The position numbers and the translations under genes were made by a program. A stretch of DNA of 20,000 nucleotides from an uncultured virus (IMG/VR IMGVR_UViG_3300005201_000027) (lineage: Duplodnaviria > Heunggongvirae > Uroviricota > Caudoviricetes): the IMG/VR virus record IMGVR_UViG_3300005201_000027. One strand, 5' to 3'. Below the pieces are notes generated by a model that ran no database searches, was not told the origin of the DNA, and saw only the letters and a program-made list of their open reading frames with translations. Positions 6,072 to 18,912 of the stretch are shown here, piece after piece (positions within the stretch are counted from its first letter, which is position 1; the number at the start of each line of letters is the position of its first letter).

Positions 6072-6240
6072 AGTAATCGTATCAAGCCTATTAACAACCG
6101 TATTAATTTTCACGTTAATCACAATTGGTTATAATATCTTGCTTCTTTTTATCGCTAGGGGAGTGGTAGTAAATATCATTCTAAATATACTAGCAATTGG
6201 TGGGTTAGCTTTCTTAGCCACTCTTGCAGAAGAACAGTAA
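6064..6240 (+). CDS. Small two-TM membrane protein (58 aa)
   Basis: MLKVIVSSLLTTVLIFTLITIGYNILLLFIARGVVVNIILNILAIGGLAFLATLAEEQ*, with a GAGGAG RBS. Confidence 0.7.
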   Translation: MLKVIVSSLLTTVLIFTLITIGYNILLLFIARGVVVNIILNILAIGGLAFLATLAEEQ

Positions 6241-6426
6241 ACAAAATAAAAAAATCCTAGTANNNNNNNNNNNNNNNNNNNNNNNNNNNNNNNNNNNNNN
6301 NNNNNNNNNNNNNNNNNNNNNNNNNNNNNNNNNNNNNNNNNNNNNNNNNNNNNNNNNNNNNNNNNNNNNNNNNNNNNNNNNNNNNNNNNNNNNNNNNNNN
6401 NNTACTAGGATTTTTTTATTTTGTTT
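6239..6426. repeat. 24-bp perfect inverted repeat flanking a 140-N gap; probable bidirectional terminator
   Basis: AAACAAAATAAAAAAATCCTAGTA (6239-6262) and TACTAGGATTTTTTTATTTTGTTT (6403-6426), between convergent genes. Confidence 0.8.
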
Positions 6427-6431
6427 TTATA

Positions 6432-6728
6432 TTATTTATTTTTAGGGAACGTCTTAGCTAACGTTTCTTCTAACCATGCCACACCTAAATCACTCCATTT
6501 AAGTGTGTTGCCACTGTTCTTGACATACTCTTTAGCTCCATCAACAGGGACTAATTTAATCTTATCGCCTACTGTCACTTCTTCTAATACACCTGCTTTT
6601 ACTAACGCTTGATGGATAGGTCTTGACGAACCTTTATACCCACTGGCTTCTAATACTTTCTTTGTGCTATGTGGGTATGCTTCATCTCTAGTAGAAAGAT
6701 ATGGGGATAAATCTATTGCTTCTAACAT
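6432..6728 (-). CDS. Hypothetical protein, possibly DNA-binding
   Basis: 98-aa ORF with AGAGGTGA RBS and its own promoter. Confidence 0.7.
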   Translation of the reverse strand: MLEAIDLSPYLSTRDEAYPHSTKKVLEASGYKGSSRPIHQALVKAGVLEEVTVGDKIKLVPVDGAKEYVKNSGNTLKWSDLGVAWLEETLAKTFPKNK

Positions 6729-6747
6729 ATAATCACCTCTTTATTTG

Positions 6748-6785
6748 ATACCTTTATTATAGCATATTAAAGGTATTCTATTCAA
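6748..6785 (-). promoter_or_regulatory. SigmaA promoter overlapped by an inverted-repeat operator
   Basis: TTGAAT-18-TATAAT with extended TG. Inverted repeat ATACCTTTA (6748-6756) / TAAAGGTAT (6768-6776). Confidence 0.7.
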
Positions 6786-6808
6786 ACTAATCAGTACGAC
6801 AAATTATG

Positions 6809-7096
6809 CTATAAATCTAATTGAAGATACTGGATACTATTAGCGATTCTTTCTGATTCTCTTTCTAATCTCAACAGTTCCGCTAGCTTGTCGCCAACAG
6901 ATAATAAATCACCATAGCAGAACATGATAATAAATTTAACATGAGTGTCGCTTACTTTAGTCCTATTCTTAACCCACATAGACATAGTATTTTGTGGGAT
7001 ACCTGTATCTTTAGACAATTCGTAACGTGTTAGCTTGTAAGACTGGCAATAAAGGTCAATCCAATGGGGTGGGGTTAGATTATGTTTTCTATTCAT
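6809..7096 (-). CDS. XRE/Cro-like HTH protein
   Basis: LTRYELSKDTGIPQNTMSMW HTH pattern. Confidence 0.7.
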   Translation of the reverse strand: MNRKHNLTPPHWIDLYCQSYKLTRYELSKDTGIPQNTMSMWVKNRTKVSDTHVKFIIMFCYGDLLSVGDKLAELLRLERESERIANSIQYLQLDL

Positions 7097-8069
7097 GAAT
7101 AGACCTCATATTTTGCATTTCTTCTTTTAAAAACTCTCTACAAGACATCTCAAACAACCGTTGCGCCCACCTTATGAAATTATCCCTGTCTTTTTCAAAT
7201 CCCATTGATACTGAATAGGAATATTCTTTAATGCCTAGATACCTAAACAATCCACTTCGTTCTTCATCTTTGATATTATTCCAATATCTCGAAACCCACT
7301 CTTTAAAATTCTTATTTACGAAAATCGTATCACTATCTAATTCAAATAGCATCGACTTTGGATTCCCATACTTTTTACTAAATGTTTTAGCATTAAACAC
7401 TTCGTGTTCAAACCATTCGGATAAATCTTTAAAGTAGTCCACATAAATTGTTCTACCATTACTCTTAAACAAATCCTCAAACACCTTGTTTCTTCCAATA
7501 GAAAAGTCTTCCGAATACTTAGAAATACCCTCCTCTGCAAATCGTCTCTCTTTGTTGTTTTGAAATACCTTAAAAATAAGAACTTTAACAATCTCACCAG
7601 TTTCTTTATTATATTCATATCCATAATTACCGTCCGATTTTGGTAGTGTGATTATTTTTCCTGTATTATAAGAGAATTTTTCGATATTAATATACCTGTC
7701 GATACTCCACTCATTTTTACTATAATTCAAAGCAGGTAAAAGCAGTAACGGATTTTCTTTGACACGCTCCTCTATTCTCATTTTTTCTATCTCGTCCAAC
7801 TTCTCATTACGTCTTGTGATACCCTCATTAAATCTCATTGTGGAATTTGGTGTATCGTCCACTATAAGTTGTAATTTATCTTTATGCTGAATATCCTTTC
7901 GTGCATTTTCTTCCCAAAACTGTTTTTGTGATTTTTCAAATTCTCTATTAGCTTTACAGCCTGCCCACTTAATAAGACTATCAATTACACCTAGTGACGT
8001 TTTCCTAACAATCCTAGCTCCTAATCTTTCTTTCTTAACAATCGGCACAAACTTAATTCGTCCAAACAT
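7089..8069 (-). CDS. Hypothetical protein (~326 aa)
   Basis: Long ORF overlapping the start of the downstream gene. No motif recognised. Confidence 0.7.
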   Translation of the reverse strand: MFGRIKFVPIVKKERLGARIVRKTSLGVIDSLIKWAGCKANREFEKSQKQFWEENARKDIQHKDKLQLIVDDTPNSTMRFNEGITRRNEKLDEIEKMRIEERVKENPLLLLPALNYSKNEWSIDRYINIEKFSYNTGKIITLPKSDGNYGYEYNKETGEIVKVLIFKVFQNNKERRFAEEGISKYSEDFSIGRNKVFEDLFKSNGRTIYVDYFKDLSEWFEHEVFNAKTFSKKYGNPKSMLFELDSDTIFVNKNFKEWVSRYWNNIKDEERSGLFRYLGIKEYSYSVSMGFEKDRDNFIRWAQRLFEMSCREFLKEEMQNMRSIHE

Positions 8070-8171
8070 TCCCACCACGTCCTTATAATTAATCTCTTTA
8101 CGTCAAACATTGAATTAATAGGTAGGCAACAGCTATCATTGCCCACTATATACTTACCATACTACCACAAT

Positions 8172-8336
8172 TTATTTTTTATTAAGCTTCTCATACTCTT
8201 TGTCGATAAATTTTTCGACCAAATCGGCTTGTGTTACGCCTTTGTGATTGCAAATTTCCCTAAACTTCTTCAAATATTCGGGCTTAATTTTTAGGGAAAG
8301 TCGTGCGCATCTGTTTACTGTAATCGGTCTAGCCAT
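8172..8336 (-). CDS. Ribbon-helix-helix (CopG/Arc-like) DNA-binding protein, 54 aa
   Basis: MARPITVNRCARLSLKIKPEYLKKFREICNHKGVTQADLVEKFIDKEYEKLNKK*: alternating beta strand, helix, G-x-T/S turn, helix. AGGTGGTGA RBS. Not in the ORF track. Confidence 0.8.
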   Translation of the reverse strand: MARPITVNRCARLSLKIKPEYLKKFREICNHKGVTQADLVEKFIDKEYEKLNKK

Positions 8337-8382
8337 TATTTTCACCACCTGTATAAATTATTTGGCATAGGTCTATAATACT

Positions 8383-8757
8383 AGTAAGCTATCACCGCCA
8401 CATTAGGGGGAGACTAGTAGAAAGAACTTTCCTCAAAAGTTTTATTTCCATGCTCTAACTATTTGCGACGTTTCCGCTTAATATAGGGCTTAACGTATTC
8501 CTCACTTACATAGACGACCGCTAACCATTATGAATGACTTTAGGGAATAAGTACCGTGCTTTTCATTCATTAGAACCATTTTCTTATAATTCCCTTTCTA
8601 AATCAGCGATAATTTTAGAGATGTGCCCTTTATCGGTAGCTAACGTCACACGTTCGTTGTTTTGCAATTAAAGTAAGGAATTGAGTCAATACTATTTTAA
8701 GCATAATTTCACCGCCTTTCATTAGAGAATGCCCTAATGTGGCTGTAATAGCTTACT
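8383..8757 (-). ncRNA. Candidate structured RNA closed by a 26-bp long-range stem
   Basis: 8732-8757 and 8383-8408 are complementary at 24/26 positions, and one difference is a G-U pair on the minus strand. Several internal hairpins, no long ORF, strong promoter upstream. Confidence 0.55.
8630..8704 (-). CDS. Putative 24-aa peptide inside the structured RNA
   Basis: GAAAGGCGGTGA RBS followed by MLKIVLTQFLTLIAKQRTCDVSYR*. Confidence 0.4.
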   Translation of the reverse strand: MLKIVLTQFLTLIAKQRTCDVSYR

Positions 8758-8803
8758 CATACCATAACTTACCTCAATACCTAGAAATAGGTATTTTTAT
8801 TTT

Positions 8804-8846
8804 GTCTTGACTTAATCATATCACTAGGAATTTATTAAGTCAAGAC
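8804..8846 (-). promoter_or_regulatory. SigmaA promoter inside a 13-bp perfect inverted-repeat operator
   Basis: TTGACT (8838-8843) -17- TATGAT (8815-8820). Arms GTCTTGACTTAAT (8804-8816) / ATTAAGTCAAGAC (8834-8846). Confidence 0.8.
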
Positions 8847-8861
8847 TTTATTTAATCTAAT

Positions 8862-10232
8862 TTATACGGCTTTACTTAGAATTTCCTCTAATTTTACGTC
8901 TGGTTTGTTTGTCCACCAAGCGGAACTACCTTTTGTAGCTCTACCGCCTTTTGGGCTAAATGTAAATCCTAATTCTTTAAGCCATGTTTGGCTAGAATCT
9001 GCTATTACCCATAATGCACCACCTTTATTACGCTTGTCAACAGTCTTGAAAGCAGGCTTTTGGACTAGTTGCACCACGTTATTTGGCTTTAATTCTTGTA
9101 AAATCGTATCATTAACACTGTTTTCTACACTAATTACGCCATTTTCGGCAGTTAAAGAAATGTTTTTAGTGTCTTTAATACCTTTTTTAGTTTTAATTGA
9201 TGCTGTCTTTAGTCGTTTAGCCCTCATTTTCCGCTTAACTAGTAGCGCATCGACTGTAATAATAGTGTGTTTTGAGATGTTTTCAAGTAATGGGGTAGAG
9301 TTATCTTGCAGTTCTGCTACTGGAATAGGGATATGGGCTAACTCAACAGATGTTTCTACTTCCTTTTTAGGGAAGCGTGTACCGTTTTCCAGTACCTTAA
9401 TCTTATTTTCTAGTCCACGGATATACAAATCCTTTTTATCTACCTTTAACTCCAGTTGCTCTAATTTATGTGATAATGTCTTATTGTCATCATTAGCACG
9501 CTCTAACATTGCCTTTAATGCCTTGTTATTATCTTTGTACCGCCCCAATTTATTGACTAAATCCATTCTTTCAAAGGTCATTTCATTCGTGTCACAATCT
9601 AAGAAAAGCATTTCCTCTAAACGGTTAAAATCAGCCCATAGATTAGAGTTTTCTGATATTAATTCTTTGTTTTGAGATTCTAGGACTAAATTTCTTGCCT
9701 CTAATTTCTCTAATTTTCCCGTTAATTCTTTACCCTCATTTTCTGCTGTTGCTAGGCTACACTCTAAATCTTCTATCATTATAGGGCTAATACTGTTGTT
9801 TTCACTCTTTAATACCAGATTATCCCGAACGTATTGGGCACGTTCGTAAGCATATAGATTATTTGGAAGTTTTTCCATGATAATATCAACCAATTCCATA
9901 CACTCTTTCATGTGATTGTCGTTAACAAAACCTAGACCCATGTCGTGGCTATCCATATGCTTATTGTAATTCCCTTGAAAATCTTCTTTAAATCCAGCAC
10001 TAGCGATAGGGGATAACTCATAGTACCCACTTGCTAGACTTTCCATCACCTCATAGGCGCTATCGCCTACCATACTTTCAAGTGCTCTAATGTCGGCAAT
10101 CTCTTGTACCCAACTTGTGTCCTCCATATCGGAAAACATTTCTTGTAAGTTGGTAGCATACTCTAACAGTTCCGCTTTCTTTAATTTCTTTAATTCCACA
10201 CCGTTTAGTAACTGTTCTTTTGTCATATTCAC
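8862..10232 (-). CDS. Large coiled-coil hypothetical protein with a Trp/Gly-rich C-terminal domain
   Basis: Heptad-rich middle. C-terminal DKRNKGGALWV..GFTFSPKGGRATKG..AWW. AAAGGTGG RBS before GTG 10232 or ATG 10226. Confidence 0.8.
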   Translation of the reverse strand: MNMTKEQLLNGVELKKLKKAELLEYATNLQEMFSDMEDTSWVQEIADIRALESMVGDSAYEVMESLASGYYELSPIASAGFKEDFQGNYNKHMDSHDMGLGFVNDNHMKECMELVDIIMEKLPNNLYAYERAQYVRDNLVLKSENNSISPIMIEDLECSLATAENEGKELTGKLEKLEARNLVLESQNKELISENSNLWADFNRLEEMLFLDCDTNEMTFERMDLVNKLGRYKDNNKALKAMLERANDDNKTLSHKLEQLELKVDKKDLYIRGLENKIKVLENGTRFPKKEVETSVELAHIPIPVAELQDNSTPLLENISKHTIITVDALLVKRKMRAKRLKTASIKTKKGIKDTKNISLTAENGVISVENSVNDTILQELKPNNVVQLVQKPAFKTVDKRNKGGALWVIADSSQTWLKELGFTFSPKGGRATKGSSAWWTNKPDVKLEEILSKAV

Positions 10233-10326
10233 TATAATTACCACCTTTATTTTTATTTTAGAATTACATTGTATATAAGTAATTCAATCGTTAGGACATA
10301 ACAGGTATGCCCATACTATCAATCAC

Positions 10327-10398
10327 TTATAAGAAACTTGCTAACACAATACCGATACCGCTTAGTAAAATCATTGCGGTTACTTTGTTGTCGCTCAT
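10327..10398 (-). CDS. 23-aa hydrophobic peptide
   Basis: GAAAGGAC RBS followed by MSDNKVTAMILLSGIGIVLASFL*. Confidence 0.5.
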   Translation of the reverse strand: MSDNKVTAMILLSGIGIVLASFL

Positions 10399-10414
10399 TT
10401 ATTACACGTCCTTT

Positions 10415-10618
10415 CTAGTCCCAATTTATGTTAAATGCTTTTTCTACCTTGATACTACAATTACTAACAAAGTCGCCCACTGCTTTATTTGTATCCTGTT
10501 CATAGACGTTTCCGACATATTTAGAATCAGAATCTCTAAACCAAACTCTTACATAATGTTTGGAAGCATCATATTCCGAACCATTCCACATATCAAGATT
10601 TAAATAAGTCTCATACAT
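10415..10618 (-). CDS. Hypothetical protein
   Basis: GAGAGG RBS. Abuts the upstream stop codon. Confidence 0.7.
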   Translation of the reverse strand: MYETYLNLDMWNGSEYDASKHYVRVWFRDSDSKYVGNVYEQDTNKAVGDFVSNCSIKVEKAFNINWD

Positions 10619-13417: not shown

Positions 13418-13465
13418 AATAATTACCTCTTTCATTGCGCCTATGCGCTCTTTTTAATTGTTAAG

Positions 13466-13605
13466 CCTAGGCTTAATAATGGGAACAACTAGCAAGCGCA
13501 AAGCATTGTTATACAAGTTGTTCCCACGGTTAAAACTAGGATTTTATTTAAGTAGTTGAACCACGTTCCCAACAGTTTGAATTATTTGGGTGGTTAGAAC
13601 GTGGT
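13466..13605 (-). other. Two long imperfect hairpins in a leader region
   Basis: CCTAG..TGGGAACAACT / AGTTGTTCCCA..CTAGG (13466-13540) and ACCACGTTC / GAACGTGGT (13560-13605). Confidence 0.6.
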
Positions 13606-13692
13606 GCCATTGTATCGCTATCGGCTTGCTATTCGGTTGAGAAAGAACACTCATTTGATAGTGGTGCAAGACCTTTTAAAAAAATTTGTTTG

Positions 13693-13881
13693 TTACAAAT
13701 CTTTCTTTTTTTCAATCTTAATACAAGACCCGTCAAACGATAGTGTTATATCTCTATCGTTCTCACTTAATCCCATATTTTCACACCACGTTTTAGGTAG
13801 GTTAGTTCTGAAGTTTTTCGTTTCAAAACCCTTTTTATTCTTTGTCTTGTAGACAAGGGCTTTTATTGTACGTTGTTCCAT
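13693..13881 (-). CDS. AbrB/MazE/SpoVT-like regulator (cassette A)
   Basis: FRTNLPKTWCENMGLSENDRDITLSFDGSCIKIEK, a clear paralogue of 12382-12567. GAGGTGA RBS. Confidence 0.85.
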   Translation of the reverse strand: MEQRTIKALVYKTKNKKGFETKNFRTNLPKTWCENMGLSENDRDITLSFDGSCIKIEKKKDL

Positions 13882-13900
13882 TCCGTTCACCTCTATACTT

Positions 13901-13929
13901 ATTATAACATAGAGAGGGTAGTAGTGCAA
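13901..13929 (-). promoter_or_regulatory. SigmaA promoter for the AbrB-like gene
   Basis: TTGCAC-17-TATAAT with extended TG. Shares TTGCACTACTAC with the promoter at 14400-14428. Confidence 0.8.
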
Positions 13930-13999
13930 GACTTATTTTAATCTTTTTTGTAAATATTCGCCACCACACTAGCTAAAGCATGGTAGCAAGTGTTTACCG

Positions 14000-14083
14000 C
14001 TAACCGATTAGCAGAACAACAATAACACCGATTAGCAATAGGACAAATCCTAGAAAAGTTGATATAATAAACTTCTTTTCCAT
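14000..14083 (-). CDS. 27-aa hydrophobic peptide (cassette A, peptide 2)
   Basis: GAAAGGGTGA RBS followed by MEKKFIISTFLGFVLLLIGVIVVLLIG*. Confidence 0.65.
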   Translation of the reverse strand: MEKKFIISTFLGFVLLLIGVIVVLLIG

Positions 14084-14111
14084 TGCAATCACCCTTTCTA
14101 GGTGCTATAAT
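14083..14111 (+). promoter_or_regulatory. Antisense sigmaA promoter (cassette A)
   Basis: TTGCAA (14083-14088) -17- TATAAT (14106-14111) with extended TG. Confidence 0.7.
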
Positions 14112-14141
14112 TAGATACAGCACCCTTTTTTAATTTTGGTG

Positions 14142-14342
14142 TTACCCATTAGAAGCAAGCCATGCACCAACTATCATTCCGATAATTGGGCCCAGTGCCG
14201 TCAACACTATGGCTACCCACGCTATGGGTTTAGTTTTGGAGGTGTCCGAACTTTCAACCTTGATAACGAAAACGTGGGTAGACTCCATTTTAACGTTATG
14301 GTTTAGGTTGATTGTGGGAACCTCTTTTTTAGGTTCAACCAT
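14142..14342 (-). CDS. 66-aa peptide with a C-terminal TM helix (cassette A, peptide 1)
   Basis: GGGGTGA RBS. Ends IAWVAIVLTALGPIIGMIVGAWLASNG. Confidence 0.75.
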   Translation of the reverse strand: MVEPKKEVPTINLNHNVKMESTHVFVIKVESSDTSKTKPIAWVAIVLTALGPIIGMIVGAWLASNG

Positions 14343-14529: not shown

Positions 14530-15150
14530 ATTGGGATTAATTGGGATAGATGGAATATATTAGGAACACCCAACTAGGAATAATTTTAGGGAACACGTTC
14601 GGGGAATGTTAGGGATAGTATTAAGGTAGAGCGGTAAGGCAAATATTATGACCGTTGGAGTGTGGCAACGTTTTGGGTTATGAGTTGGGGCGACTTTGCT
14701 TTTAACGGTGGTAATACTATCACGTCGCACATGGTAGCGCTATCCCATATGCATAATAATCACATGGAAAGTATGCAAAACTGCATTAAAAATGATGCAA
14801 AACGAACACAAGTTTATTCAACATAAGAGAGGTTATATTGAATATAGATAATTATGTGGTGAATGTCCGCCACGGGGTAGGGGGTAGGGGTCTTTAAATT
14901 TGTTCAGGAACAGCTCTTATAGTCAATATTCACAATTTTTCTAAAATTCAAAGCAACAATTTTCCCAACCCCGATACGACAATTTTTCAGACAAAATTTT
15001 CCTTAAAATTATCCCTAATCATTTCCAAAACTTTCCGAAATTTTAAATCGAAGATTCAATTCAAAGCTTTAAACCCAAAGGGGTAGGGGCATCCCCTGCG
15101 CCCACGCTCCGCCGAACAGCTAATCGAAATTTAAATTTTCAAAATTTCTA
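14530..15150. other. Non-coding region with phased motifs and G-runs; candidate terminus or packaging region
   Basis: T(T/A)GG(G)A motifs about 10-15 bp apart at 14531-14615, GGGGTAGGGGGTAGGGG at ~14874-14890, AATTTTCC-like tracts about 11 bp apart at ~14935-15050, second GGGGTAGGGG at ~15080. Confidence 0.45.
14816..14843. other. dif-like tyrosine recombinase site (11-6-11)
   Basis: ATTCAACATAA-GAGAGG-TTATATTGAAT. The arms are 1 and 2 mismatches from the XerD arm TTATGTTAAAT. Confidence 0.6.
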
Positions 15151-16285: not shown

Positions 16286-16418
16286 GAAAATCCCTCCGTC
16301 AAGGTCATTATTGCCAATATTGGTGATATTTATACACAGAATCGCATAATGTTTATTGGGCACATTGATTTGCATGAGGGGTTAGCATTACCCCGATGAC
16401 TCACACCTACATTGCTAC

Positions 16419-16515
16419 AAGCCCCATATTAGCCCGTAGAGCTATTTTTATCCTCGCCCCTTATATTTTCTAGGGTTTGGGTGAAAGCTGTCTCTACGGG
16501 CTTTTATGGGGGTTT
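16419..16515. other. Long imperfect hairpin
   Basis: CCCCATA..AGCCCGTAGAG / CTCTACGGGCT..TATGGGG with an inner CCCT/AGGG stem. Confidence 0.65.
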
Positions 16516-17096
16516 TAGGCTACGTTTCGTTTGAACATTGTCCTGATTTCTTCAATAAGCTGTTCCGAATCCTTGAAGAACCTGATTCGCTTAAACCATA
16601 GCAAAGCCTTGGCATATTCTTTTTTGTTCATAAATTCCGTAGCTTCATCATATATTCTCTCAACGTCTGCCATCATCTCGGTCTGGCTACGTTCTGACAC
16701 CACTTCCTCTGGGAAGAAGAGATTGGGTTTAGGATTAGGTGAAGAGGCAGTTATCATCAACTGTTCTAACTCACTACGCCCCCAAAGGCTCACATTAGCC
16801 GTCTGTGCTAAGTTTAGTGCCTGTCGGGTATATGAACTGGTTGTTATGACCAAAGCCCTGTCAGCGCCGTAATATAGCTTTCCAGCGATAACCTCTTGTA
16901 CTCCTCCGACACTTACATTAGATTTATAGCGTTTAGCTTGAACGGCAATCTTCTTGTCACCCTCGTACAATATTAAATCAACTCCGTAATCACCAGAGCC
17001 TTTGGTCACTTCTCCTCGATAACCGATTCGCTTAAATAGCCCCATCAAGTATTTTTCAAATTCGTGTCCATCCATTCCGTCAAAATTATAGCTCAT
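16515..17096 (-). CDS. Mrr-family (Mrr_cat) restriction endonuclease-like protein
   Basis: MDGHEFEKYL, GSGDYGVDL, AVQAKRY, VQEV..G..YY.A and VITTSSYT.QA motifs, plus a helical TPR-like tail. Confidence 0.88.
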   Translation of the reverse strand: MSYNFDGMDGHEFEKYLMGLFKRIGYRGEVTKGSGDYGVDLILYEGDKKIAVQAKRYKSNVSVGGVQEVIAGKLYYGADRALVITTSSYTRQALNLAQTANVSLWGRSELEQLMITASSPNPKPNLFFPEEVVSERSQTEMMADVERIYDEATEFMNKKEYAKALLWFKRIRFFKDSEQLIEEIRTMFKRNVA

Positions 17097-17220
17097 GTTT
17101 TCTCTCCGTCCATTGATGTGATTTTTGTCTCCATTTGATTTTACCACAGATTCGGGGGCAGGTGTTGTCTAAAATGTTTTTCAAAAGGATTTATGAAAAT
17201 TTTCATTTTGCGAAGCTGTT

Positions 17221-17651: not shown

Positions 17652-17671
17652 AAAAAGCCCAAAGTGGGCTT
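17652..17671 (-). terminator. Intrinsic terminator after the initiator gene
   Basis: AAGCCC-ACTTT-GGGCTT followed by a T-run on the minus strand. Confidence 0.6.
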
Positions 17672-18158
17672 AAACGTCATTCATCCAATCTCCGTTAACA
17701 ATGTAATCGTAATCAGGGTCATTTTTATCCACCTGAACTACTGCTTCATTTTCTTCAATCTGCTTTCTTGGCGACAAGTTTCCTGTGCTTTCTTGGATTA
17801 GTCTTGGGATTCCATTAGAGTCTACTTCTATCGGTTCATCCCAGAACACCCATTTCCACTGGTATACTTTGCCTGTGCTTCCACAACGGAGACTAATCTT
17901 GTGCAGGTATTTTTTTTCTTGAAGCTCTTTGGTGTACTTTTTGACAGCGTATAGAGATTCGTTTGACATTGAAACGAGGATTTTATCAGTACACGGAAAG
18001 TCTTCCTTATTTGACATTAAGTAAGCTAGTACACCTCTTGCCGCATAAGATAGCTCCTTGTTCCTTAAAACCTTAGTATGAATCTTTGTGTAATCTGTTT
18101 CGTGGCTGAATGCACGAGAGCCAACTGATGGCATAAATTTTTCATCTTCTTTTTTCAT
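17670..18158 (-). CDS. Winged-helix replication initiator/replisome organizer-like protein
   Basis: YTKIHTKVLRNKELSYAARGVLAYLMS...VKKYTKELQEKKYL is the typical N-terminal wHTH of phage initiators. AGGAGG RBS. Confidence 0.75.
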   Translation of the reverse strand: MKKEDEKFMPSVGSRAFSHETDYTKIHTKVLRNKELSYAARGVLAYLMSNKEDFPCTDKILVSMSNESLYAVKKYTKELQEKKYLHKISLRCGSTGKVYQWKWVFWDEPIEVDSNGIPRLIQESTGNLSPRKQIEENEAVVQVDKNDPDYDYIVNGDWMNDV

Positions 18159-18227
18159 TTACATTTCCTCCTAGTCTGGTAAGACAAGGATAGGAAGAAC
18201 CTTATGAGAAATATTTCCAATAGGGTA

Positions 18228-18330
18228 TTTACAAATAATCCTATATGGGGTACAATAGTCCCATAAGGTTCTTCCTTTTCCGATACCGATACAGTGCTAA
18301 GTTTGGCGACCTACACTGTATCGGTATTTT
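18228..18330 (+). ncRNA. Candidate countertranscript (antisense RNA) to the initiator leader, with its promoter
   Basis: TTTACA (18228-18233) -17- TACAAT (18251-18256), then a 14-bp stem (18283-18296 / 18314-18327) ending in Ts. Confidence 0.6.
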
Positions 18331-18492
18331 GCGTTTACCAGAAATTTTTCTAAATAAATTGTACCATATTTTGACAAAACTGTGGGAGTATTCCCTCCGA
18401 CAAATTTCGCCAATGTTAAATTTGCACAAATTATCCGATTTAATTTATATAATACATGAATTCCGACCAAATGTAAAGCCTAACCAATAGAG

Positions 18493-18912
18493 TTAGGCTT
18501 TTTTCTTTTCTGCAATTTCCAACAAATCCTTGTTTCCAGACAAACATTTGACGATACATTCAACAGCGTGCAACTCCTTTTTATCGAGCTGAACAATCAT
18601 TTCGAACAATTCCTTGATTAATTTGTCTTTTGCTAATTTATTGTCTTTAAGGGCTTCTTCCCAGAGCTTGGAATCACTTTGGCTACGATACATTGCGCCA
18701 GTTCCCTCATCAAACCATTCCTTACGGATATTAAATCTCTCTATAATATGGGATGCAAATTCTTTTTTCAAAGGTGTTCGTAAAAGTTCCACGTTAACAA
18801 TCTTCCCACGACTTACCCCGAGCTTTCTTCCAAATTGTGTTTGGGTGAATTTCTGGTCTTCCCTAATCTTCCTCACTCTATCAGCGTGTTCTTTCGAATA
18901 TCCGTAATCCAT
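18493..18912 (-). CDS. XRE-family (CI-like) repressor
   Basis: RVRKIREDQKFTQTQFGRKLGVSRGKIVNVE HTH and FNIRKEWFDEGTGAM signature. GAGGGAG RBS. Confidence 0.88.
   Translation of the reverse strand: MDYGYSKEHADRVRKIREDQKFTQTQFGRKLGVSRGKIVNVELLRTPLKKEFASHIIERFNIRKEWFDEGTGAMYRSQSDSKLWEEALKDNKLAKDKLIKELFEMIVQLDKKELHAVECIVKCLSGNKDLLEIAEKKKA

Follow-up and report, generated by a model that had tools for sequence, protein, structure and literature searches.

Analysis of a 20,000-nt stretch of an uncultured virus (IMG/VR record IMGVR_UViG_3300005201_000027; Caudoviricetes), referred to below as the window, revealed a long-range RNA stalk in front of a small ribbon-helix-helix (RHH) gene on the minus strand. 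Two arms separated by 323 nt pair with each other over 36 positions, clearly beyond chance, and close a rod-like domain that matches no described RNA family. A promoter lying inside a perfect palindrome precedes the rod, and the gene for the 54-aa RHH protein follows it. We tentatively read the locus as a structured RNA acting in cis, as the leader or processing domain of a unit under RHH autoregulation, which we hold to be possible rather than probable.

The gene upstream of the unit, which encodes a 460-aa protein on the minus strand, ends at 8862 and the next credible gene, that of the RHH protein, starts at 8336, with ~510 nt of non-coding sequence between them. Each of the six frames of 8349-8861 contains at least 11 stops of at least two kinds, so that no recoding of stop codons would open the region, and this explanation was rejected. 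Open reading frames (ORFs) of at least 20 aa in the region are only 23-45 codons long. A preliminary description of this DNA had placed ~320 nt with several hairpins and only tiny ORFs between the two arms, which agrees with the 323 nt and the ORF lengths found here.

Allowing G-U pairs, the stalk consists of 29 Watson-Crick pairs, five G-U pairs and two mismatches; 34 of its 36 positions pair and the longest unbroken runs are 12 and 13 bp. The calculated duplex energy is -48.1 kcal/mol as minus-strand RNA and -37.3 kcal/mol as plus-strand RNA, and the mean pair probability of the stalk in the complete RNA is 0.97. To score inverted repeats, ungapped alignments (+1/-2, span of at most 700 nt) were compared with those in 100 dinucleotide shuffles of the whole 20-kb window. 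The stalk is the top ungapped inverted repeat of this span in the window and scores 30 on the minus strand, against shuffle maxima with a mean of 18.7 and a largest value of 23 (n=100). With Watson-Crick pairs only it scores 20, against a shuffle maximum of 17. The 26-bp terminal stalk of the preliminary description is present with 0 mismatches, and the helix is actually longer. Its 26-nt arms (8732-8757 and 8383-8408) show 0 mismatches to their shared consensus and have no further copy in the window; two matches to this consensus occurred in 0/200 shuffles.

Folding of the 431-nt locus RNA of the minus strand gave -130.9 kcal/mol (z -7.33), and 0/100 shuffles folded as well, while the plus strand of the same locus reached -103.5 kcal/mol (z -3.99). 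Above the stalk, the two strands of the rod lead to an apex of three hairpins (8634-8530), and a side hairpin is formed by 8448-8420. In a fold of the 694-nt transcript, the rod stays a separate domain and the Shine-Dalgarno (SD) sequence of the RHH gene is open in the centroid structure. The Rfam comparison suggested by the preliminary description (Rfam 15, whole window) gave 0 matches at gathering score. A permissive scan of 8100-8950 (E<=10) detected only Aar on the plus strand (18 bits against a threshold of 60, E 6.1) and Six3os1_3 (12.4 against 40 bits, E 1.8). No tRNA or transfer-messenger RNA was found in the window.

The alternatives weighed (ALTERNATIVES) comprise a foldback element or miniature inverted-repeat transposable element (MITE), an inverton, a replication origin, a gene scar and a trans-acting processed RNA. 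For the first three, which would place the function of the repeat in the DNA, the positions of the stalk that deviate from Watson-Crick pairing are informative: five are G-U, 0 are A-C and two are others (one-sided binomial 5/5, p = 0.03). Because neutral decay of a DNA repeat should yield G-U and A-C equally, the 5:0 excess favours selection on minus-strand RNA; as evidence for the strand it is suggestive, not decisive. A count from a global alignment of the arms (10 G-U against 1 A-C) was set aside; the interior aligns poorly, with 36 transversion-type mismatches and 31 gaps. Inverted repeats at both ends of ~320 bp would suit a foldback or MITE-like insertion, an inverton with 26-36-bp inverted repeats that flips the leader lying between promoter and RHH gene, or a replication or recombination hairpin, and the plus strand also folds better than its shuffles (z -3.99); as single-stranded DNA, both strands fold, with -59.6 and -51.4 kcal/mol. 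The arms are, however, a single pair in the window, and their patterns gave 0 exact matches in viral, metagenome and genome collections. No target-site duplication or flanking direct repeat was seen at the arm ends, and no recombinase or transposase was found among the 30 window proteins scanned (20 of ~65 kb of the contig). With the G-U excess also speaking for the minus-strand RNA, we regard a DNA-level element as quite unlikely. A replication origin in particular seems unlikely, with no iterons found and the gene of the DnaD-like initiator 9 kb away.

Transcription of the unit is predicted from a sigma-A-type promoter upstream of the 5' arm. The preliminary description had located a promoter inside a 13-bp inverted repeat, and both were recovered: the palindrome (8804-8816 / 8834-8846) is perfect, and the promoter within it (TTGACT-17-TGaTATGAT) scores 10 of 12. 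The palindrome spans the promoter from -35 to about +5, its arms covering -35 and -10/+1. Repressor sites classically cover -35 and -10/+1. The palindrome is notable because of its position over the promoter, not because of its size. Its arm has two exact copies in the window and one copy with two mismatches at 8680-8692, the latter not significant. From the spacing (~7 nt past the -10 box), the transcript would start at ~8808. Within 6300-10500, the promoter is one of two extended -10 matches at 10/12. The combination of its A-rich/GTCTTG -35 context with a TGn extended -10 is seen again on this strand, at 13932 and 14431, and the three promoters look like a family of host-type early promoters. 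The two at 13932 and 14431 (minus strand) have an A-rich/GT(C/A)TTGCAC -35 region and each carries its own small palindrome over the -10. A decayed copy that has lost its -10 is found at 13672 (minus strand); the family includes the promoter at 8843 as a variant. Between promoter and 5' arm, the short hairpin proposed earlier at 8776-8795 was also recovered (8 bp, free energy -7.5). Read on the plus strand, it is followed by a T-run, and it could serve as a 5' stabiliser or as a plus-strand terminator.

Behind the 3' arm, the RHH gene of the preliminary description (8336-8172) was confirmed by its product, which matches PF10723 with 27.3 bits (cut-off 21, E 3.6e-6). Matches to RHH_9 and RHH_10 stayed below their cut-offs; Arc-like and CopG-like PHROGs gave further, weaker matches, and ParG matched weakly (E 0.26). 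The protein further resembles NF010256, a plasmid RepA-type copy-control regulator (5.2e-7, below cut-off). Since the RHH protein resembles Arc/CopG-like repressors and the palindrome overlies -35 and -10/+1, autoregulation is a reasonable inference, and the protein probably binds the palindrome to repress its own promoter. The positions of all features of the unit are given in the table.

Table. Features of the RHH unit (positions in the window; free energies in kcal/mol where indicated)
Feature	Position	Strand	Description
Putative operator	8804-8846		Perfect 13-bp inverted repeat (8804-8816 / 8834-8846), 100% complementary, 17-bp spacer
Sigma-A-type promoter	8815-8843	-	-35 TTGACT 8843-8838, 17-nt spacer, TG 8823-8822, -10 TATGAT 8820-8815; 10/12
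5'-proximal hairpin	8776-8795	-	8 bp, 4-nt loop, free energy -7.5
Stalk, 5' arm	8732-8767	-	Inverted-repeat search, fold, duplex energy
Local hairpin	8709-8749	-	-14.7 kcal/mol; uses part of the 5' arm, pairs the SD of the short ORF
Rod interior, 323 nt	8409-8731	-	5' strand 8731-8635 pairs with 3' strand 8526-8449
24-codon ORF and stop	8630-8704	-	ATG at 8704; SD-like GGCGGUG 8716-8710
Stalk, 3' arm	8373-8408	-	Inverted-repeat search, fold, duplex energy
Bare TATAAT	8374-8379	+	Points into the 3' arm; candidate antisense start only
54-aa RHH gene	8172-8336	-	SD 8351-8344; PF10723, 27.3 bits
Terminator-like hairpin	8122-8146	-	10 pairs, 4 G-C, weak T-tail; after the RHH gene

Two further complementarities touch these features. 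The 5' half of the terminator-like hairpin behind the RHH gene (8131-8143) repeats the 3' stalk arm's core (8387-8399) in direct orientation, at 85%. In principle, the 5' arm could pair with either, and this may represent an antitermination-type alternative or chance. A perfect, A/U-rich complementarity of 10 bp joins 8858-8867, in the stop-codon region of the 460-aa gene, with 8351-8360, just before the SD of the RHH gene; such pairing would bracket the whole module in read-through transcripts, and it is within chance for the window.

On the tentative reading as a leader or processing domain, the locus would be a self-contained unit from promoter to terminator, with a host-type extended -10 promoter inside a perfect palindrome at which the RHH protein from the end of the unit would repress its own synthesis. 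The first ~440 nt of an mRNA starting at ~8808 would remain an untranslated rod, formed by the 5' hairpin and then by the 36-position helix closing 323 nt. The stalk would serve as the entry site for a double-strand-specific RNase such as ribonuclease III (RNase III). Its cleavage would separate the rod from the RHH message and could in this way determine where the RHH mRNA begins, how stable it is and how much of it is made. To judge from folding, a short ORF within the rod would stay silent, its SD being held at first in a local hairpin made with part of the 5' arm and afterwards by the rod's 3' strand. The stalk offers at least ~2 helical turns of nearly uninterrupted double-stranded RNA in the region behind the promoter, as is characteristic of RNase III-type sites, at which the cleavage proposed here might occur. 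Two other intergenic hairpins on the minus strand, at 16415-16518 and 13463-13543, have arms of 27 and 28 nt, loops of 50 and 25 nt and no U-tract. Their length exceeds that of ordinary terminators, and they may serve as processing sites for a double-strand-specific RNase; such long non-terminator stems fit a phage with double-strand processing sites in its early transcripts.

The short ORF itself has 24 codons; 5 nt separate its ATG from the SD-like GGCGGUG, a format shared with the SD of the RHH gene. In every fold of nascent-transcript prefixes, the local hairpin 8749-8709 dominates until the 3' arm exists. Its core is the CAUUAG/CUAAUG pairing that the preliminary description had pointed out, as CATTAG/CTAATG, as a local alternative to the 5' arm beside the ribosome-binding site of the peptide. 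In the complete RNA the SD pairs with 8470-8465, with an unpaired probability of 0.01-0.19 for the six bases 8715-8710, and the rod also pairs the UG of the AUG. The folds thus predict a short ORF that is closed at every stage, nascent and final. The mutually exclusive switch suggested earlier gains some in-silico support from this, in that the SD is paired by the local hairpin in the nascent and by the rod in the full-length RNA.

A two-stage closure of this kind is also a feature of type I toxin mRNAs. In hok/Sok and aapA1/IsoA1 mRNAs, a transient local hairpin holds the SD until the final fold, which includes a 5'-3' interaction, takes over, as described in the respective reports (PMC8594479, PMC6733600, PMC5416894). 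The locus could accordingly encode an RNA-gated toxin, the 24-codon ORF being kept inert by the co-transcriptional hairpin and then by the stalk, with a plus-strand antisense RNA starting from the TATAAT at 8374-8379. The same reports (PMC8594479, PMC6733600, PMC5416894) list the 5' hairpin, the 5'-3' long-distance interaction and SD/anti-SD pairing as descriptors of type I mRNAs, and the unit resembles hok/Sok and aapA1/IsoA1 in all of these and in its small ORF. As far as these sources go, it differs from them in a peptide that is not hydrophobic, in that no credible antisense gene was found, in an RNA that continues into a regulator and in showing no homology to toxin families. Small ORF, SD sequestration and 5'-3' interaction were thus found in silico, in an RNA that is not a short stand-alone mRNA, but a toxic hydrophobic peptide or homology to a toxin family was not apparent from the sequence.

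The longest uninterrupted hydrophobic run of the peptide is 3 residues, and its helical hydrophobic moment is 0.232 against a shuffle mean of 0.249, with 52% of 2000 shuffles at least as high; an amphipathic peptide resembling phenol-soluble modulins was rejected by this test. The peptide gave no Pfam or NCBIfam match. SD-like motifs of the form GG[N]GG[T/A]G were also found inside genes. The TATAAT hexamer, which had been noted as pointing back into the 3' arm, is present, but as a bare hexamer that lacks both a -35 and a TG; no plus-strand promoter within 8370-8800 was listed by the promoter scan. The sole candidate terminator for a short antisense RNA, at ~8425-8441, is a weak A-U hairpin with one G-C pair. 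Finally, the RNA runs past the rod into the RHH gene. The RNA-gated toxin of the preliminary description is weakened by the properties of the peptide and of the antisense promoter; we consider it unlikely, and a gated toxin of the hok or aapA kind less likely than a leader or processing domain. Because the peptide and the RNA end do not fit the type I picture and no convincing antisense promoter is seen, the plainer reading as a leader or processing domain is preferred, on which the short ORF would be either a silent by-product or a minor regulatory device.

A search for relatives of the unit covered GenBank phages, PLSDB plasmids, IMG/VR contigs, JGI metagenome contigs, one genome per prokaryote species and two protein libraries of 5.8 billion and 1.84 billion sequences. 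Searches with 8100-8900 (blastn) revealed nothing in GenBank phages and PLSDB plasmids, and megablast with the whole window detected only a 43-nt match in a ribonucleotide reductase gene. Likewise, tblastn of the 460-aa protein against phages found nothing, whereas tblastn of the RHH protein returned two records with E 0.2-0.6. A locus search in IMG/VR contigs with the 460-aa, 329-aa, RHH and exonuclease proteins confirmed 0 relatives, and a word-based protein search returned only the proteins of the window itself. An exhaustive HMMER search with the RHH protein detected three proteins, namely itself, a spurious 1523-aa repeat protein and a 53-aa RHH protein (48% identity, E 6.7e-4). The latter led to nine metagenome loci, all of another RHH family without a long upstream gap: a divergent ORF of ~370-400 aa lies directly upstream in 6/9, one of ~150-206 aa in 2/9, and in 1/9 the contig is too short. 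The one viral locus found with an alignment of the RHH and 53-aa proteins was spurious and lies inside an 888-aa ORF. DNA patterns of the stalk arms gave 0 exact-pattern matches in viral, metagenome and genome contigs, in searches that find near-identical arms only.

These searches also bear on a trans-acting stable RNA, in which the stalk would act like the maturation stalk of an rRNA precursor and its cleavage would free a rod of ~330-380 nt that serves as a decoy, a sponge or an anti-defence RNA. In its favour, ~510 nt of a compact phage genome are given over to a non-coding region with a strong promoter of its own, and both the end-pairing stalk and the lack of a match to known RNA families are in line with it. 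Against it stand the little structure of the interior beyond the rod (z -2.39), the lack of relatives in the phage, plasmid, viral-contig, metagenome and genome collections and the lack of a terminator or separate 3' end; nor can a target be named. We therefore judge a trans-acting RNA to be improbable. The broader proposal of an RHH-autoregulated precursor whose 36-bp stalk is cut by RNase III, to yield either a trans-acting RNA of ~330-380 nt (decoy or anti-defence) or a toxic or regulatory peptide gated in two stages, appears doubtful.

The orphan state of the locus would also suit an inverted duplication in decay or the remnant of a gene since lost, functionless in itself and transcribed merely as the leader of the RHH gene. 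No conservation points to constraint on it, its interior is weakly structured, and fragments of a gene could be seen in the three short ORFs that lie in three frames at 8704-8502. These ORF fragments, however, and the +1 read-through product had no matches, and the 5:0 excess of G-U over A-C as well as the double sequestration of the SD are unexpected under neutral decay. Moreover, phage genomes rarely retain 0.5 kb of junk. A functionless remnant is thus rather improbable. A frameshifted winged-helix pseudogene was dropped as a candidate; the single fragments and a 39-aa +1 read-through of the first two had no match in Pfam or PDB (E<=10).

Several observations weigh against the leader or processing domain that we tentatively prefer. 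Folded by itself, the interior shows only moderate structure (z -2.39, equalled by 3/100 shuffles; plus strand z -0.46). Among 367 segments of 431 nt on the minus strand, the locus ranks third (residual z -3.3); two overlapping segments at 18101-18581 stand before it, and 13901-14331 follows closely. Folding of 18120-18600 and 13880-14340 gave z -6.35 and -6.05, respectively, through several local hairpins and no single long-range helix. The gap of about -27 kcal/mol between minus and plus strand is ~1.3 standard deviations from the window mean of -8.1 (standard deviation 14.5; extreme -42.6), which is unremarkable because the minus strand is G-rich throughout. Strand asymmetry of the folding energy was rejected as a sole argument for an RNA, the whole minus strand folding better. 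The palindrome taken alone about equals the best inverted repeat expected by chance over 20 kb (mean shuffle maximum 12.8), and promoter-like matches are not enriched as a class (22 found, 16.5 +/- 4.1 expected); the pattern TTGAC-N-TAnnAT, of which the window has only two instances, was equalled in 47/200 shuffles. No usable relatives of the DNA, the RHH protein or the flanking proteins were found in the collections searched, and the case for the RNA rests on one sequence.

Stalks processed by RNase III are known from rRNA precursors and from intercistronic sites in the early RNAs of phage T7 and of Bacillus phages SP82/SPO1. The present stalk shares with them a long, nearly continuous helix that flanks a transcribed segment of a phage early transcript, and other long stems lie on the same strand. 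It differs in enclosing 323 nt of non-coding sequence with no known stable RNA, and its cleavage is a proposal made here. RNase III sites of phages are usually local hairpins of ~50-100 nt.

Small RHH repressors combined with RNA elements are familiar from the immI region of phage P22 (Arc/Mnt and sar RNA), from plasmid pMV158 (CopG and RNA II) and from plasmid R1 (CopB with CopA/CopT and the tap leader peptide). Like these circuits, the unit has a small RHH protein of copy-control type, a palindrome over -35/-10 and a structured leader with a short ORF. Unlike in these circuits, the leader precedes the RHH gene and no replication initiator was recognised downstream. In being a long non-coding RNA of a phage of Gram-positive type, the element is comparable to GOLLD and ROOL; going by the descriptions of these RNAs (bioRxiv 10.1101/2024.12.08.627333, PMC5737381), it differs from them in having no Rfam match and no relatives, in a simple rod in place of an ornate multi-domain fold and in being joined to a downstream gene.

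Set among these systems, the unit may represent a structured, probably RNase III-processed leader with RHH autoregulation and a type I toxin-like SD gating of a short ORF, a mechanism for which our confidence stays somewhat short of even. If the rod is functional, it would provide, from a phage, an RNA domain with long-range pairing of its ends that is tied to an RHH autoregulatory circuit, and SD sequestration in two stages would become tractable beyond the type I toxin families known so far. With an orphan phage as its source, the example has limited value, and generalising needs relatives or transcripts.

The window is 20 kb of one contig of 65,124 nt (~65 kb) that carries the window's own proteins, and by appearance its source looks like a phage of Gram-positive (Firmicutes) type. 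A block of plus-strand genes extending to ~6240 encodes NrdI, both subunits of a class I ribonucleotide reductase, a deoxynucleoside monophosphate kinase, a Cas4-like exonuclease and a protein with sigma-70 region 4. The block of minus-strand genes, which extends from ~19 kb to 6432, encodes an XRE-type regulator, the DnaD-like initiator, an Mrr-like nuclease and many small orphans; the unit studied here belongs to this minus-strand early block. The nearest GenBank phages have Paenibacillus, Bacillus, Listeria and Enterococcus as hosts and genomes of 46-68 kb, with an exonuclease identity of only ~40%. A comparison of synteny with these phages was dropped, their gene order being different. The 329-aa protein encoded downstream of the RHH gene had no family match and a poor structure model, and no replication initiator was recognised there.

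The orphan 460-aa protein encoded directly upstream of the unit (8862-10244, minus strand) is mostly coiled-coil-like. At its C-terminal end, residues 361-434 gave a match to the C-terminal part of ZorC, a Zorya defence protein (PADLOC PDLC00613, E 5e-7), and this C-terminal region could be a DNA-binding domain or a mimic of a host-defence component. Elsewhere in the early block, 16515-17147 (minus strand) encodes a protein with an Mrr-type restriction endonuclease domain (PF04471, 9.7e-30).

Other structures were observed in the window. A perfect 24-bp inverted repeat (6239-6262 / 6403-6426) flanks a masked run of 140 N (6263-6402), exactly at the point of convergence of the plus and minus gene blocks. 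Bordered by an A-tract and, on the opposite side, by a T-tract, the repeat resembles a bidirectional terminator or a further long-range stem, and its T-rich tail has 12 nt in common with the tail after the 8776-8795 hairpin. Upstream of the gene for a DnaD-like or replication-initiator-like protein (17670-18158), ~330 nt of non-coding sequence on the minus strand (18160-18490; z -6.35) contain a terminator, a 15-bp hairpin and an 18-bp stem that encloses ~45 nt just before the SD; this region is a candidate origin or leader. The segment 13436-15152 has few credible ORFs and holds the promoter repeats at 13672, 13932 and 14431 together with a C-rich run of CCCCTA type near 14880.

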